Source: a virus
Lineage: Duplodnaviria > Heunggongvirae > Uroviricota > Caudoviricetes
DNA length: 33,129 nucleotides
IMG/VR virus record: IMGVR_UViG_2579778745_000007
Location: 1 to 33,129 of that record
Direction: 5' to 3' (one strand)
The notes below the pieces were generated by a model. The model was not told the DNA's origin and made no database searches. It was given only the letters and a program-made list of their open reading frames with translations. The position numbers and the translations under genes were made by a program. Shown piece by piece: positions 702 through 17,051 of this stretch. Within the stretch, counting starts at the first letter, position 1, and every line of letters starts with the position of its first letter.

Positions 702-1553
702 ATGATAAATTATGTCTACGGCGAACAACTGTACCAGGAGTTCGTCAGCTTCAGGGATCTCTTTCTAAAAAAAGCTGTTGCACGCGCCCAACACGTTGAT
801 ACAGCCAGCGACGGTCGTCCTGTACGCCCGGTTGTCGTTCTACCGTTCAAAGAAACTGACAGCATTCAGGCTGAAATTGATAAATGGACTTTAATGGCGC
901 GGGAACTGGAACAGTACCCAGACCTCAATATCCCAAAGACTATTTTATATCCAGTGCCTAACATCCTTCGCGGTGTGCGCAAGGTTACAACTTATCAGAC
1001 AGAAGCTGTGAACAGCGTCAACATGACCGCTGGCCGCATTATTCATCTGATTGATAAGGACATTCGCATCCAAAAAAGCGCGGGGATCAATGAGCACAGT
1101 GCGAAATACATAGAGAACCTGGAAGCAACAAAAGAGCTAATGAGGCAGTACCCGGAGGATGAAAAATTCCGTATGCGTGTACACGGCTTTAGCGAAACAA
1201 TGCTGCGCGTCCACTACATCTCCAGTAGCCCTAACTACAATGATGGTAAATCAGTTAGTTACCATGTACCGCTGTGTGGCGTGTTTATCTGCGATGAAAC
1301 TCTCCGTGATGGAATCATCATCAACGGTGAATTCGAGAAAGCAAAATTTAGCCTTTATGACTCTATAGAACCGATCATCTGCGACCGCTGGCCGCAGGCA
1401 AAAATATATCGCCTGGCAGATATTGAAAATGTAAAAAAACAAATTGCCATCACTCGCGAAGAGAAAAAGGTTAAGTCAGCCGCATCAGTTACGCGCAGCC
1501 GTAAAACCAAGAAGGGGCAGCCAGTAAACGACAACCCCGAAAGCGCGCAATAA
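702..1553 (+). CDS. c1: P1 C1-type immunity repressor (283 aa)
   Basis: 283-aa ORF with strong GGAGGAGG RBS, preceded by coi-sized ORF and operator-bearing promoter, convergent with pacB; operator motif recurs through the window. Confidence 0.6.
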   Translation: MINYVYGEQLYQEFVSFRDLFLKKAVARAQHVDTASDGRPVRPVVVLPFKETDSIQAEIDKWTLMARELEQYPDLNIPKTILYPVPNILRGVRKVTTYQTEAVNSVNMTAGRIIHLIDKDIRIQKSAGINEHSAKYIENLEATKELMRQYPEDEKFRMRVHGFSETMLRVHYISSSPNYNDGKSVSYHVPLCGVFICDETLRDGIIINGEFEKAKFSLYDSIEPIICDRWPQAKIYRLADIENVKKQIAITREEKKVKSAASVTRSRKTKKGQPVNDNPESAQ

Positions 1554-1556
1554 ATT

Positions 1557-1578
1557 ATGCCCGGCATCAACCGGGCAT
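1557..1578. terminator. Hairpin between convergent c1 and ant-like genes
   Basis: ATGCCCGG-CATCAA-CCGGGCAT, 8-bp perfect stem; weak T tract. Confidence 0.35.
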
Positions 1579-1585
1579 TCTTCCA

Positions 1586-2701
1586 TTATTCAGCCGCCAC
1601 CGGTTTTAACAAGCCAGCATCGAGCAGTTTACGCGTCAACCACTGCTGGCCTTTACCCGTTAATTGAGGCGTCAACCGTATCTGGTAGCCATCTTCATCA
1701 TCCAGCACCACTTCTTTCACCGTGAAATACCCCGCGTTGATGTACTGCTGGAACGGCACATTTTTACGTCCACCGGACGCTATCAGGATGCCGTTCTCCC
1801 GTAACCAGGCAAACAGCGCGTTTTGCTTAAGTCCAACAACCTTTGCAAAATTCCCAATCAGGATCCCTTTAGCTACTGATACCCGGTCGGCAAAATCGAC
1901 TTTAGGAGCGGCGGCCACCAGCTGCTGATTTAGCTGGTGGGCTTTCTGTTCCAGAAGCTGCTTTTGTTCAGCCAGTTCGGCAGCCAGGCGCAGAGCTTCT
2001 GGAAGCGTCTGGGGGATTGCAACCGGTTGCTGTTCTTTTTGTCGGAAGTAGCTGTCTTCCAGTTTTTCAAAGAATGCCCATGCCTGATCGGTTTCGATCA
2101 TTTTAGCGTGGCGGGCTGCGCCGCGTTCCGTCCAGAGGATGAGTGAGCGGGCTTTAGGAGAGATAGGATTTTGTGAGTTACTTAAAGTCACTCGCAAATT
2201 GTTCAAATCATCTCCAATAACTTTATAGAAATGCTTGCCTTCACAAAAACGTTCAGCATTACGGGAAAAGTTCTTCTTGATGTTATCCGCATCTGTCCCA
2301 TACCCCTTAGCAAGGATCTTAGTTGTCACTACACGCACTCCCAGCCATTCCAGAACGGGAATTTCATCAGACTGATTCTGAACAACCACCAGCTCCGATT
2401 CCTGAACTGAAGGTGCATGAGTTTTTTCTGATTTAACGTTAGTTGCTTTCATTCTGTGTGCCTCCTTGCGTGTTTCGGCTGCGACGGTTGCGTAATTCAG
2501 ATGCCCCTGTTCGAGCAGGTATTCGCGGATATCAGACAACAGAATGCGGTGAACAGCGTTCTTGTCCTTTCTCCGGTAAAGTTGTTTGGTGATCATGAAG
2601 TAGTTGGCAATAACGCCCGGTATATCCCTGGTACTGATACAGGATGTGTGCTGTTCAATTGCCTCAATCATTTCTTCACGGGTGACTAATGACGTTCTCA
2701 T
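1586..2701 (-). CDS. Phage antirepressor-like protein (ORF6N/KilA-N-like central region plus KilAC/ANT-type C-terminal domain)
   Basis: Central segment VTTKILAKGYGTDADNIKKNFSRNAERFCEGKHFYKV and C-terminal segment typical of antirepressor domains; start overlaps stop of upstream small ORF. Confidence 0.55.
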   Translation of the reverse strand: MRTSLVTREEMIEAIEQHTSCISTRDIPGVIANYFMITKQLYRRKDKNAVHRILLSDIREYLLEQGHLNYATVAAETRKEAHRMKATNVKSEKTHAPSVQESELVVVQNQSDEIPVLEWLGVRVVTTKILAKGYGTDADNIKKNFSRNAERFCEGKHFYKVIGDDLNNLRVTLSNSQNPISPKARSLILWTERGAARHAKMIETDQAWAFFEKLEDSYFRQKEQQPVAIPQTLPEALRLAAELAEQKQLLEQKAHQLNQQLVAAAPKVDFADRVSVAKGILIGNFAKVVGLKQNALFAWLRENGILIASGGRKNVPFQQYINAGYFTVKEVVLDDEDGYQIRLTPQLTGKGQQWLTRKLLDAGLLKPVAAE

Positions 2702-2919
2702 AGTCCCTCCTGAGCAGAAGCGTTAACAGGGAGGCACCAGTAACTGAGAGAGTTGCGCGAATCAGTGGAAAAGCGGGCAGAGAAAATGCAGGGAGCGTCA
2801 GGAAGCTGAGAACGGGCCTCATCTTCTGTCGGTGCAATAACGAAGTGATAGTGACGTTTCTGGCAGGAATAGAAGCGCCAGATGAATTCAGGATGAGTTG
2901 GGGTAGGGACAGTAGCCAT
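2698..2919 (-). CDS. Small protein (73 aa) coupled to the antirepressor gene; possible Icd-like cell-division inhibitor
   Basis: AAGGAGG RBS 6 nt upstream; ATGA overlap with downstream ant-like gene, the arrangement known for icd-ant in P1 immI; identity not verified. Confidence 0.35.
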   Translation of the reverse strand: MATVPTPTHPEFIWRFYSCQKRHYHFVIAPTEDEARSQLPDAPCIFSARFSTDSRNSLSYWCLPVNASAQEGL

Positions 2920-3104
2920 AATGGCAGCCTCCTTTGACTAAGTTAAGGAGCTACCGCGTGAGGTCTCAATCTCAATGGCGGTAGCACTGACTGGGTTGAG
3001 ACTACCGGCGTCAAAGGGAACCGGCCTGCCTTTCGGCAGCCCAGCCAGCACTACCATTGATTTCGGAGCTAAACGCTACGTATGGCTGTGCGATGGCATG
3101 ACAC

Positions 3105-3127
3105 AAAAAAAGACGCTTTCGGCGTCT
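3105..3127 (-). terminator. Rho-independent terminator downstream of pacB
   Basis: Minus-strand RNA AGACGC-CGAAA-GCGUCU followed by U6-7. Confidence 0.55.
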
Positions 3128-3260
3128 GTGTCGCCTTTGACATTATCCGGGGTCTCAATCCCGGCACCCGTTTTAATGAGGTGCCTGATAAGCATAAACC
3201 GAAAATGCCTCAAGGCGCAAGAGGTCAGGTTCAATGTAACATCGGTAGTTAAAAAACACA

Positions 3261-3277
3261 ATTTATTAGAGCAAATA
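3261..3277 (-). promoter_or_regulatory. C1 operator-like site just 3' of pacB
   Basis: Reads TTTGCTCTAATAAATTG on minus strand, 15/17 to consensus. Confidence 0.45.
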
Positions 3278-3278
3278 T

Positions 3279-4763
3279 TCATTCATTAAGCCATGCCAGA
3301 GCTTCATCAACCTGCGCTTCGTCTTCGACGCTAAGCACTTCATCCTGGGGAACATAATCCGCCAGCATAGCGAAACAATATGTATCCCAATGGTCTGGTG
3401 AGTGCAGGTTGAGTTTTTTCTTCATATCCTCCTTACTCATCACCTTCCATTGACCTGCGGAGTTAATCCCTACAGGGATTTTCGACGCTTCCTCAATAGT
3501 TTCATTACCCTTATCCAGTCTCATACGACCAGATTTTACGGCCTCTGCGGCTTGAACGTTGGCATAAGCACGTTTATCAAAGTACAGGCTCTTATCTTCA
3601 CGGCTATGCATCTTTTTACCCCAGCGTATGCGCTGTACGGTAATACCATAATACTCGTACATCAGATCCGCCGTTGCTTTACCCAGGCCATCGCCGTCTA
3701 TCGCTATGGTGATATTTGGGAATCGCTCAGGATTACATTCTGCGAAAATTTTGGCGGCAAGCTGCGTTTCTGTAACGTCTGTGTATTCCAGCATTCGATA
3801 GTTGATTACACGGCGTTTATTTCGCTGGCCGGACACCATCATGATATTGATAACGGACTTATCCCGTCCCGTACCACCAGCAACGTCCACACATGCAAGC
3901 CAGCCCCATCCTTTTGCAATCTTGACTTTCCGCCGCGTTGCACGTTCAACCTCATCACGTCCAAGAAGGAAGCCATCCTGTGATTTAGGGAATAGGCCGC
4001 GTACCTTAATCATGTACATAGGGTTATCACGCCCGCCGTACTCCGCCAGCTTCATTTTGATAAATGCTGGCGTTACCAACGGTGATTCCTCACTGTTAAG
4101 CGTGATCGCCGTATAAACGCCATCAGGGTTACCAGGACGCTTGGCCAGTTTATGGTGTGTATCGTAGAAATAGCCGCTTGGGCGTGTAGGCTGTGACAGT
4201 AATAAGATGCGGTTATCCTGTCCGGTAAGAGCACCGGTGATGATACCGAAAGCTCTATCACTGACACCGGAGGCTTCATCGATAATATACAGAAGATGAT
4301 CTGCGTGTTCACCGGCAAGAGCTTCTTCACTTCCCAGACGAAAGCCCTTCGGTACTACAGTCCATACACCTTTACCAGTAACCTCATAGAAAGCGGTTTC
4401 TGTCAGAACAAAATAATCAGCAAGCCATGGAAAACGGCTGGTGGCAGTAGCCCAGTTTATCTTGATGTACTTGAATATACCGGTCATTACCTGCTGAATT
4501 TTGTTCGCAACGATAATGGCGCGGGCACCGGGATACATGATTATGAACAACATGATCATGATAGAAGTCATGTCTGATTTCCCGGTACCGTGACCAGACG
4601 AAACAGATGTCTTGCTACCCTGTTCCTGCACAGACTCAATAATCAGATCCTGCTGCCAGGTAGGTGTTTTGCCGAACAAAACATCAGCGGCCGCAATCCA
4701 GTCATAACGATATAGCGCCACCAGCTCGCGCCAACGTGGATCCGTTACGCAACTTCTGGCCAT
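3279..4763 (-). CDS. pacB: Terminase large subunit (P1 PacB-like, 494 aa)
   Basis: Walker A GHGTGKS, Walker B-like [10 protein letters not shown]-terminal acidic nuclease-type residues; start overlaps pacA stop. Confidence 0.8.
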
Positions 4764-5956
4764 TAATCATCATCCCCGTATAGCTTGCGGGTAACTTCTT
4801 CGTCTTCCTCCTCGTCTTCGTCCAGGTCTTGTTCCAGCCATGGGTCGTTTGATACACCTTCAGTATCAACATCTCCATAACCGCCTGTATCAACGATATC
4901 GGCGATTTCTTCCCTACGCTGCTCAATCCACAATGCGGCATCGGCGCGGCGGTTGGCGGCCCGTTCTCGCGCAACTTTGTCCAGATCTTCAAGAGAAGGG
5001 CCACCGACGGCTGTTTGCCTTTCCTCATCATCGGTATTTGTCTTAGGAGCACGCAGATCGGCTTTGATTTGCTCCAGCATCAGGGGCGGCACTTTCCCGC
5101 CATGCGCCTCGATGAATTCAGCTGCTTCCAGCACTGACCAATTATTTTCACGCTTTCGTTCGTATGCCAGCTTAACAATGCCAGCTTGCCCCATAGATAA
5201 AGCGTGCTTTTCCGCCTCCCGGCTTTCTTTTCGATAGTTATTCCGGATGCTGTAAATGGTGTTGATCAGGCTGCTTATCTGCGCGGAACAGCTGTTTAGC
5301 ATGCTCGCGATACGGTATTCAGGCGGAGTACCTTCATCATCGTCTTTTTGCTGATCGCGCATTTCCTGCACCAGGCGAATACACGTATCCCTGGCGTTCT
5401 CCAGCATAAGGAGATGAGAAAGAGACTTTTCAAGAAGAGTGGTTTCCAGAACATCGGCCCCGGACCGACGCAACATAGCGCGCGCGGCCTTCCGCGCTTC
5501 AACGTTATCTATCAGGTAATCGCCAGCTTCGAATTCAAAGCGTTCACCATCATCATCCAGGGTGTCGCGTTCCAGGCGATCACGTAAGGTACGGTGGGCG
5601 CGGTTGATCACGTCATGATCATCCGAACGATCATTTATGCGCTTATTTTGGCGCTTCGCATTCTCGACTGCGGCACTGACAACGGCATTAACTCTCTGTT
5701 TTTCCGCTATTTCAGCCGCAATATGATCACCTGCATGTTGATCATTAGAGTGATCAATGATCATGCTTTTTAGTGGCTTCCTGACTGGCTTATTTGGCTT
5801 GCGGCTGTCCGCAGTCCTGGTGTCTTCTTTGAAGGCACGGAGATAACGACGTGCGGTATTAGGGTTAAGATTAAACTCGGCGGCATACTGTGCGATGGTG
5901 TAACCACCATCTCGCGCCAGGCGAGCAAAATTCTTCTTGTGATCGTCCCAGGTCAC
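4763..5956 (-). CDS. pacA: Terminase small/pac-recognition subunit (P1 PacA-like, 397 aa)
   Basis: 397-aa ORF with basic N-terminus and acidic C-terminus, coupled to terminase large subunit; contains clustered TGATCR hexamers in its 5' part; GTG start with AGGAAG RBS. Confidence 0.7.
5605..5763. other. pac packaging site: seven TGATCA/TGATCG hexamers in a 3 + 4 arrangement
   Basis: Hexamers at 5605-5610, 5616-5621, 5628-5633 and 5724-5729, 5739-5744, 5751-5756, 5758-5763, separated by about 90 bp; each contains a Dam GATC site. Confidence 0.7.
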
Positions 5957-6494: not shown

Positions 6495-6574
6495 CCTGTC
6501 ACCTACTGATTAGCCCATGTCAACTAATCAACGTGGAATATAACACCCTCGATTAAAGAAATAGCAATACATTA

Positions 6575-6591
6575 GAGCAATTTTATCTAAC
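6575..6591 (-). promoter_or_regulatory. C1 operator-like site upstream of the Lpa-like ORF
   Basis: Reads ATTGCTCTAATGTATTG on minus strand, 14/17 to consensus. Confidence 0.4.
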
Positions 6592-14870: not shown

Positions 14871-14909
14871 CACTTTCTCTGTTTTAAAAATCAATATTTA
14901 TTTGAGCAA

Positions 14910-15416
14910 TTATTGCTGATGAAGAAGCGCATTTTCATACTCCCTGACCATTAACGTAAGCACGCCGTGCCTCCTGAAAACACGCGCCACTTCAATCTTA
15001 TCTTCCAGCGCGAACGCGATTTTACTTAGACCAATTTTCTTAAGGAGATCAATCTTTGCTGGGCCGTCATTTCTGTCATCGGTGGCAGGACGCATAGATA
15101 GCAAAGGCTCAGCCCCGTTTGTTACGTACTTCCGCAGCCAGGCTCGTGTTTTATCCCTTGCGATCTCACAGCGCCCGGTTACAAACCAGACCGTGTAAAC
15201 GTTAAATAACTGGCGCACCATATCAATAACTGGAGTTATGGGAGTATCGGTGTCACAGGCGAGATTAAACTCGTTCCAGTCCTTTGTTAATGCACCTTTA
15301 CCTGGTGGCGGAAGCAAATGCAGTCTGTCTTCAGTTGCCTCTGATATTGTTCCATCAATATCGACTATGACGATATACGGACGTTCCTGGTGTGCGTGTT
15401 TATTGAAAATACTCAA
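14910..15416 (-). CDS. HAD-superfamily phosphatase-like protein (168 aa)
   Basis: N-terminal HAD motif I VIVDIDGT; downstream conserved T/K/D positions consistent with HAD fold. Confidence 0.5.
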   Translation of the reverse strand: MSIFNKHAHQERPYIVIVDIDGTISEATEDRLHLLPPPGKGALTKDWNEFNLACDTDTPITPVIDMVRQLFNVYTVWFVTGRCEIARDKTRAWLRKYVTNGAEPLLSMRPATDDRNDGPAKIDLLKKIGLSKIAFALEDKIEVARVFRRHGVLTLMVREYENALLHQQ

Positions 15417-16985: not shown

Positions 16986-17002
16986 ATTGCTCTAATAAAA
17001 AA
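16986..17002 (+). promoter_or_regulatory. C1 operator-like site (ATTGCTCTAATAAAAAA)
   Basis: 14/17 to consensus; partner site in opposite orientation 33 bp away. Confidence 0.45.
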
Positions 17003-17034
17003 CGCAATGAGTGTACATCACGTTTTAAAAATAT

Positions 17035-17051
17035 GGAATTATTAGAGCAAT
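17035..17051 (-). promoter_or_regulatory. C1 operator-like site (reads ATTGCTCTAATAATTCC on minus strand)
   Basis: 14/17 to consensus; almost identical to the site at 44-60. Confidence 0.45.

Follow-up and report, generated by a model that had tools for sequence, protein, structure and literature searches.

In phages P1, P7 and SJ46, 24 base pairs (bp) separate the c1 stop from the pacB stop, and phiW39 and 813R1 likewise have no intervening DNA between the two genes. What, then, fills this interval where the two genes stand far apart? The question is raised by the virus record IMGVR_UViG_2579778745_000007 (Caudoviricetes), whose positions 1 to 33,129 (33,129 nucleotides, nt) are called the window here. 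Escherichia phage RCS47, which is a phage-plasmid of the P1-like group, shares 99.6% identity with positions 1400-3400, and the E. coli plasmid LC257586.1 shares 100% identity with positions 1500-3330. Identity to P1 ends just past the c1 stop (1553) and restarts exactly at the pacB stop (3279); therefore, about 1,725 bp (1554-3278) stand in place of the 24-bp spacer of P1. An initial annotation had proposed that a gene for 73 amino acids (aa) and a gene for 371 aa are inserted here, and this was borne out. Sequence comparison, RNA models and covariation suggest that the insert is a complete and probably functional second anti-immunity operon of the immI type, carried by an RCS47-type P1-like phage-plasmid. 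Confidence in this reading is good, though not full.

Leader RNAs and proteins of the insert

The P1 record gives the immI elements in the order Oc4, P2c4, P1c4, a1, b1, c4, a2, b2, icd and ant1/ant2, and the window matches it element for element. The features are as follows.

3259-3275, minus: C1 operator TTTGCTCTAATAAATTG
3233-3261, minus: putative promoter overlapped by the operator (-35 TTGTGT at 3256-3261, 17-nt spacer, -10 TACATT at 3233-3238)
3191-3220, minus: possible second promoter, for the isrK-like RNA (TTGCGC at 3215-3220, 18-nt spacer, TATGCT at 3191-3196)
3106-3184, minus: isrK-type leader RNA (Rfam RF01394, 60.2 bits; gathering score 50)
3152-3158, minus: a1 UUGAGAC, in a hairpin loop of the isrK-like RNA
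3134-3141, minus: b1 GUCAAAGG, inside the isrK-like RNA
3111-3127, minus: stem of the intrinsic terminator of the isrK-like RNA, followed by a T run (terminator scan and fold)
2974-3061, minus: C4 antisense RNA (Rfam RF01695, 75.4 bits; gathering score 45; model positions 1-87 of 87)
3010-3017, minus: b' CCUUUGAC, second hairpin loop of C4
2996-3002, minus: a' GUCUCAA, single-stranded joint of C4
2928-2969, minus: C4 target region (complementarity, P1 layout and covariation)
2963-2969, minus: a2 UUGAGAC, complement of a'
2950-2957, minus: mid element GCGGUAGC, between a2 and b2
2931-2938, minus: b2 GUCAAAGG, overlapping the icd Shine-Dalgarno sequence AAGGAGG (2928-2934)
2698-2919, minus: 73-aa open reading frame (ORF), icd homolog
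1586-2701, minus: 371-aa ORF, ant-like

The operator agrees with the C1 consensus ATTGCTCTAATAAATTT at 15 of 17 positions, lies 3 nt downstream of the pacB stop, and aligns with the P1 Oc4 (former Op51) and P2c4 region. The whole segment 3229-3278 resembles Oc4/P2c4. In P1, P2c4 (former P51a; TTGTAT, 17 nt, TATCTT) directly follows Oc4, and the candidate promoter at 3233-3261 has identical position and spacing; the predicted operator abuts TTGTGT just as Oc4 abuts P2c4. This promoter is assigned by its positional homology with P2c4 and is therefore putative. The second candidate at 3191-3220, a weak consensus match, has a -10 element that precedes the start of the Rfam isrK match by 7 nt, and falls in the segment common with phage D6 (2900-3228). 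C1-operator-like sites number 11 in the window, against 0.19 expected. The other ten include 44-60, 127-143, 591-607, 6565-6581, 14894-14910, 16986-17051 and 20659-20675, and an overlapping divergent operator pair, one member a perfect 17-mer, is found at 30785-30812.

The C4 assignment is supported by the model score, the fold shape and the complementarity of a' and b' to a2 and b2 at the ribosome-binding site. The minimum-free-energy and centroid folds alike show a long closing stem around two hairpins (-46.5 kcal/mol, z = -5.26). All pairings are perfect and of the Watson-Crick type: a' pairs with a1 and a2 at 7/7 positions, and b' pairs with b1 and b2 (8/8 for b2). When the whole leader is folded, a' and b' are paired in cis with a1 and b1. 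The isrK-type RNA has its terminator and, downstream, a small ORF coupled to an antirepressor-like gene, as in Gifsy-1. The c4-a1b1 motif (RF03163) gave no Rfam match in the window, though the canonical copies in RCS47 and P1 match; a1 and b1 are carried here by the isrK-type RNA, not by the c4-a1b1 motif. A 39-aa "ash family protein" (2938-3057, minus), so named by the Prokaryotic Genome Annotation Pipeline (PGAP), sits on the C4 gene and was judged to be a translated RNA gene. Its translation matches Pfam PF10554 Phage_ASH marginally (28.3 bits, cut-off 26). The same PGAP name appears in cassette-bearing plasmids, e.g. NZ_AP024520.1, where the ORF covers C4 and a2/b2. Phage_ASH calls beside icd/ant are probably translated C4 RNA genes.

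The elements listed in the initial annotation all exist, with coordinates consistently about 2 nt too high. The operator had been placed at 3261-3277. The proposed terminator is the 3' hairpin of the isrK match. The two arms of the inverted repeat, GCTACCGC (2978-2985) and GCGGTAGC (2950-2957), had been put at 2952-2987. The leader, described as structured over roughly 150 nt, is strongly structured indeed: 301 nt fold at -119.7 kcal/mol (z = -5.0 against shuffled sequence). The distance from the terminator to the icd ATG is about 185 nt, and the isrK-like RNA adds 79 nt upstream of the terminator. The proposed likeness to a c4-icd-ant module gains support from the Rfam C4 and isrK matches and from the two proteins.

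The 73-aa protein shares 80% identity with P1 Icd (E = 3e-41) and matches NF033153 phage_ICD_like (49.8 bits, cut-off 25). It is an icd homolog, a predicted cell-division inhibitor and leader ORF for ant. The two genes overlap by ATGA at 2698-2701, which is conserved with P1. The 371-aa protein shares 54% identity with P1 Ant1 (E = 1e-128); counted from the alignment, the identity is about 67% over residues 1-85 and about 92% over the C-terminal KilAC part. Pfam assigns ORF6N to residues 117-201 and ANT/KilAC to residues 259-360. An in-frame internal start like that of Ant2, with the Shine-Dalgarno sequence AAGGAGG and an ATG at 2450-2452, falls at codon 84, and the start context AAGGAGGCACA(C/T)AGAATG is conserved with P1 at the same codon. 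By its sequence, the 371-aa protein is a mosaic Ant1/Ant2 paralog. The conserved N- and C-terminal parts, and these alone, suggest that Ant might act on C1. In the related cassettes, icd is intact and the ATGA overlap is present in 30/30, and ant is full length (364-372 aa) in 24/30.

Covariation of the pairing sites

The IMG/VR database was scanned with a 24-mer from the operator-promoter region, which gave 41 loci; together with RCS47, JL22 and 673R5, 44 contigs were compared. At the pacB-c1 locus, these fall into five specificity types, and all three a copies and all three b copies are changed together in each type.

T0, 24 copies: a1/a'/a2 UUGGCCU/AGGCCAA/UUGGUCU; b1 and b2 GUCUAAGG, b' CCUUGGAC
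T1, 11 copies: a1/a'/a2 UUGAGAC/GUCUCAA/UUGAGAC; b1 and b2 GCAAAAGG, b' CCUUUUGC
T2 (this window), 6 copies: a1/a'/a2 UUGAGAC/GUCUCAA/UUGAGAC; b1 and b2 GUCAAAGG, b' CCUUUGAC
T3, 2 copies: a1/a'/a2 UUGGAAC/GUUCCAA/UUGGAAC; b1 and b2 GCAAAAGG, b' CCUUUUGC
T4, 1 copy: a1/a'/a2 UUGGAAC/GUUCCAA/UUGGAAC; b1 and b2 GUCAAAGG, b' CCUUUGAC

Within each type all interactions are fully paired, with G-U pairs in T0 alone. Two a alleles and two b alleles are found in all four combinations. A wider scan of IMG/VR with a 15-mer of isrK yielded 88 distinct, parseable isrK-C4 leaders in 35 classes. The pairing within and between classes was as follows.

a'-a1: cognate 7/7 in 34 of 35 classes; non-cognate mean 3.3 nt
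a'-a2: cognate 7/7 in 35 of 35 classes; non-cognate mean 4.7 nt
b'-b1: cognate mean 8.8 nt; non-cognate mean 4.9 nt
b'-b2: cognate mean 10.1 nt; non-cognate mean 6.3 nt

The same pairing pattern is seen in phiP27, Stx2 phage F039, Salmonella phage sal3 and D6. The three copies of each site change together, and function is therefore argued for: the comparison is strong evidence that the a and b pairings are under selection. As it further indicates, the isrK-type RNA corresponds in function to the c4-a1b1 segment of P1. The sole exceptional class (a' GTGGAAA, b' loop GTTCTGTAGTTG, 4 contigs) has an a1 (TTCTCAC) that pairs with its own a' at only 4/7 positions; its a2, b1 and b2 match. This leader resembles a recombinant whose decoy is mismatched. 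In contig L023 (IMGVR_UViG_2698536372_000019; 678-2807), downstream of pacB, the operator, leader and icd occur twice, 1,566 bp apart, with a 340-aa ant between them, which might reflect either a tandemly duplicated module or an error of assembly.

The initial annotation had pointed to a different control, in which GCUCCUU would sequester the ribosome-binding site in cis. Both elements are present (GCTCCTT at 2945-2951, AAGGAGG at 2928-2934), with a spacing of 10 nt rather than about 15. In this explanation, the icd ribosome-binding site is hidden by GGUAGCUCCUU, which folds onto AAGGAGGCUGCC, and the repeat GCUACCGC/GCGGUAGC serves as the switch. The hairpin does occur in the minimum-free-energy fold. 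Moreover, in 50/50 distinct leaders, a sequence lying between a2 and b2 is able to pair with the C4 closing stem on its 3' strand (5-9 nt; at least 7 nt in all but one), with compensatory examples such as GCUACCGC/GCGGUAGC, CUCACCACC/GGUGGUGAG and GUCACCGCC/GGCGGUGAC. In Gifsy-1, the short IsrK remodels an inactive mRNA in trans, and a two-structure switch activates orf45-anrP translation (PMC4825925). However, the hairpin alone is unexceptional (z = -1.45), pairing of the mid element with the Shine-Dalgarno sequence shows no cognate preference (6.74 against 6.55 for non-cognate), and cognate pairs gain little from the alternative stem (7.70 against 6.56). The covariation of the a and b sites with C4, by contrast, is very strong. 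The hairpin, having no cognate-specific covariation, is thus not supported as the main control, and the b'/b2 pairing of C4 fits best. Control in cis as the explanation of the switch appears unlikely; it is most likely a layer added to the C4 mechanism, not its alternative. Pairing of the mid element with the closing stem may represent an alternative fold of the precursor, comparable to structures A and B of Gifsy-1.

A second module and its proposed switch

As the initial annotation had supposed, the cassette is a second module. RCS47 also carries canonical immI at the classical position (C4 69.6 bits, c4-a1b1 54.6 bits, icd, ant1/ant2). The canonical c4-icd-ant is kept in JL22 and 673R5 too, and D6 likewise has two modules. 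Canonical immI maps between sim and kilA-repL, and the cassette was not found there, but between pacB and c1. Judged by gene order and sequence, the pacB-c1 cassette is a paralogous second module, not a relocated immI.

The a'/b' sequences of the cassette (GUCUCAA/CCUUUGAC) are unrelated to those of P1 (CUGUCAA/UCACUAAC) and of P7 and RCS47 (CUGCUAA/UCACAAUC). Modularity is also seen among the canonical c4 alleles: in JL22 the a' is that of P1 and the b' that of P7, 673R5 joins the P7 a' to a different b' loop (UUUCAUUCGUG), and in D6 the P1 a' goes with another b' loop (UUUCGUAAGUG). In P1, P7, RCS47, JL22, 673R5 and D6 (records L050, L164, L006 and L161-L163), the canonical a1/a2 and b1/b2 match their own a'/b'. 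Position by position, the canonical C4 of RCS47 leaves 3/7 (a) and 4/8 (b) positions unpaired on the targets of this module, and the reverse is similar; JL22 and 673R5 were compared by the longest contiguous pairing only. Because of this mispairing, the two C4 locks are predicted to be orthogonal. The five alleles at the pacB-c1 locus would then define heteroimmunity types.

A mechanism may be proposed from the P1 immI annotation and from IsrK of Gifsy-1 (PMC4825925). In a lysogen, C1 would limit transcription from the operator-overlapped promoter. Read-through past the isrK terminator would give a precursor, from which RNase P would cut out C4. C4 bound to a2/b2 would block ribosome entry at icd, and translational coupling and polarity would then keep Ant off. 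If transcription rises, by loss of C1 or by infection of a cell without matching C4, surplus a1/b1 leader RNA would titrate C4. Icd and Ant would be made, and Ant would inactivate C1, so that lytic growth is reinforced. The terminator between a1/b1 and C4 would allow the decoy to be made in excess over C4. In Gifsy-1, the same layout of isrK, small ORF and antirepressor was found by experiment to control prophage induction (PMC4825925).

Several observations weigh against the interpretation as a functional immI-type operon. A strict sigma-70 scan found no promoter in the leader, so the promoter assignments rest on positional homology with P1; both candidates are weak consensus matches. The intrinsic terminator between a1/b1 and C4, unlike P1, is the main anatomical difference, and the C4 supply would therefore depend on read-through. 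Canonical immI lies outside the window, and its co-residence is suggested by RCS47 and by LC257586.1, which has a second matching place within its record. All C4 b' loops contain CCUU, complementary to the Shine-Dalgarno sequence, so some cross-talk between the modules is possible; an unconstrained search between them gave 6-7 nt of contiguous pairing, near the non-cognate background. The ant gene is truncated in 6/30 related cassettes. Finally, in comparison with P1 Ant1, an ORF6N domain takes the place of the central third of Ant, and C1 may therefore not be the target of this Ant.

The last point bears on a further explanation, in which the RNA switch works as described, and Ant is not aimed at its own C1. 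It would target the repressors of other prophages, or bind DNA via ORF6N, and the module would be a weapon or sensor against other elements. The central 110-140 residues are wholly unlike P1 Ant1. In lambdoid phages and in D6, the genes driven by the same isrK-C4 leaders are unrelated regulators of the Rha, Roi or Ant type, and AnrP of Gifsy-1 works by inducing antQ (PMC4825925). On the other side stand the high identity of the first 85 residues and of the KilAC part to P1 Ant1, the retained nested Ant1/Ant2 architecture, and the position of the operon beside c1 and under a C1 operator. A target other than C1 is therefore considered rather doubtful, if somewhat less so than a switch acting in cis.

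The cassette is a clear mosaic, which raises the possibility of a non-functional recombination product that is passively carried. Its operator and promoter resemble P1 immI; positions 2857-3185 share 94% identity with D6 (under less stringent conditions, the match to D6 covers 2900-3228, from the query start onward), positions 2577-2892 are 93% identical to phage Ro157c2YLVW, and positions 1602-1936 are 86% identical to P1 ant. The truncated ant genes mentioned above agree with decay, and phage phi456 retains only a stub of the cassette. However, both ORFs are intact here, and icd is intact in all 30 relatives. Without selection on pairing, coordinated changes at three sites over five alleles would not be expected. 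PLSDB contains at least 302 records with at least 80% of the cassette. Passive carriage of a dead mosaic is thus very improbable. In phi456 (OR339795; L008 4987-6102), about 110 last codons of the cassette ant stand beside c1, followed by IS1 insB; the remaining module and pacB are absent from that position. The phi456 paper reports high spontaneous induction (PMC10967188).

A wider view may be put forward tentatively, with confidence short of even. The immunity of these elements might form a combinatorial code, in which two orthogonal C4 locks each act on a C1-controlled Ant1/Ant2-type antirepressor, the a and b sites recombine independently, and the allele pair decides between tolerance and induction of plasmids. 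The isrK leader would then be a terminated decoy in hundreds of lambdoid and plasmid prophages. Independent recombination is argued from the four a/b combinations and the fifth type at the locus, together with the hybrid P1/P7 canonical alleles.

P1-like phage-plasmids are common carriers of extended-spectrum beta-lactamase and mcr genes, and the cohabitation or mutual induction of two of them depends on their immunity systems. Since a second antirepressor operon, with an allele series of its own, occurs in about 300 sequenced plasmids, heteroimmunity within the P1-like group probably has finer divisions than the classical P1/P7 split. If the combinatorial code is true, co-infecting P1-like plasmids, which often carry resistance, would tolerate or induce each other according to the allele pair. 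Annotation that names only "ant" or "hypothetical protein" overlooks the RNA genes that would set the specificity. At the sequence level, the comparative data also back a simple reading of the widespread isrK RNA as the carrier of a1/b1 for the cognate C4.

The insertion was described earlier by Venturini et al. 2019, with reference to RCS47 (PMC6906374). Existing annotation gives "ant" in RCS47, and PGAP names Icd-like and KilAC proteins in plasmids. In the searchable literature, no description was found of the RNA genes of the cassette, its C1 operator, its allele series or its predicted orthogonality to canonical immI; the cassette goes unmentioned in the JL22 paper (PMC9603915), and the UTAK-22 preprint contains nothing relevant to it. 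The initial annotation had held that reference genomes with the same genes at this position would speak against its proposal. Such genomes exist (RCS47, JL22, 673R5 and the at least 302 plasmids), which lowers the novelty, and the identity of the module stands.

The neighbouring features of the window are listed below.

382-591, plus: coi
702-1553, plus: c1
1557-1578, no strand given: GC-rich hairpin between convergent ant and c1 (terminator scan; fold -18 kcal/mol, z = -5.0)
3279-4763, minus: pacB
4763-5956, minus: pacA

The terminator scan of the region found 8 terminator-like sites against 2.6 in shuffles, and the hairpin at 1557-1578 is probably a bidirectional terminator. Two ORFs of the leader, of 68 aa (3076-3282, minus) and 104 aa (2975-3289, plus), were set aside as non-genes because they overlap the operator, isrK and C4; neither has a Pfam or NCBIfam match. 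The ATG of the former overlaps the pacB stop (ATGA), and the ORF covers the operator, promoter and isrK. Its counterparts are gp120 in the JL22 annotation and a 187-aa ORF in L023 (2244-2807), and in T0 alleles its reading frame stays open through icd. The lack of any family match makes it most likely a false gene call across regulatory RNA. Three tRNA genes lie in the window, at 28472-28544, 29979-30051 and 30057-30129. In RCS47, at 57.6 kb and outside the window, a sok antitoxin RNA was matched (L006 7602-7775; Rfam, 68.5 bits), which points to a hok/sok-type locus beside an IS element, downstream of repL.

Comparison with known systems

The immunity system of satellite P4 (seqA, CI RNA, seqC) is similar in that a processed antisense RNA pairs with sites upstream and downstream in its own transcript; the likeness is drawn from the literature only. 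IsrK has been called a structural homolog of SeqA (PMC4825925). In P4, however, CI terminates transcription of replication genes, and there is no icd or ant.

The isrK locus of the Salmonella prophage Gifsy-1 (isrK, STnc1160, orf45, anrP, isrJ; Hershko-Shalev et al. 2016, PMC4825925) also has an isrK RNA with a partly read-through Rho-independent terminator, a processed small RNA downstream (in the cassette, the predicted C4), and an antirepressor-like gene whose translation is coupled to that of a small leader ORF. The Gifsy-1 locus controls prophage induction, a role that is proposed for the cassette by analogy. The lambdoid phages phiP27, Stx2 F039 and sal3 share with the cassette both an isrK-C4 leader and a small ORF that begins with MATVP. 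However, Gifsy-1 is an integrated lambdoid prophage without a C1 operator, and its AnrP acts via AntQ. In the published model, IsrK remodels the mRNA to activate translation and is not treated as a decoy for a C4-type RNA (PMC4825925). The complementarity of the two RNAs is noted in the same paper (PMC4825925).

A second c4-icd region is also found in phage D6 and pYU39_89, and a D6-like plasmid with such a region has been reported (PMC6799933). The isrK-C4 leader of D6 is 91-94% identical to window positions 2857-3228 and corresponds to allele type T1, with a sites as in the window and different b sites. The D6 module lacks the P1 C1 operator segment, the homology ending at 3228, and it has another genome location. 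What it drives is an unrelated 313-aa Ant of the Rha type. Kinship of the two Ant proteins was considered and rejected, as they have no similarity; the leader and the icd 5' end alone are common.

In layout, the cassette is close to immI of P1 and P7. The same element order, a C1 operator directly before the promoter, and the C4 fold are found in both. In both, a'/b' are complementary to a1/b1 upstream and a2/b2 downstream, with b2 over the icd Shine-Dalgarno sequence. Icd, the ATGA overlap, the nested Ant1/Ant2 start at codon 84, and the KilAC C-terminus are also common to both. However, immI sits between sim and kilA-repL, whereas the cassette lies between pacB and c1. In place of the terminator-less c4-a1b1 (RF03163) of immI, the cassette has an isrK-type RNA with its own intrinsic terminator, the a'/b' sequences are unrelated, and the centre of the cassette Ant is ORF6N. 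The cassette thus extends the known immI principle to a new locus and new alleles, and the principle itself is unchanged.

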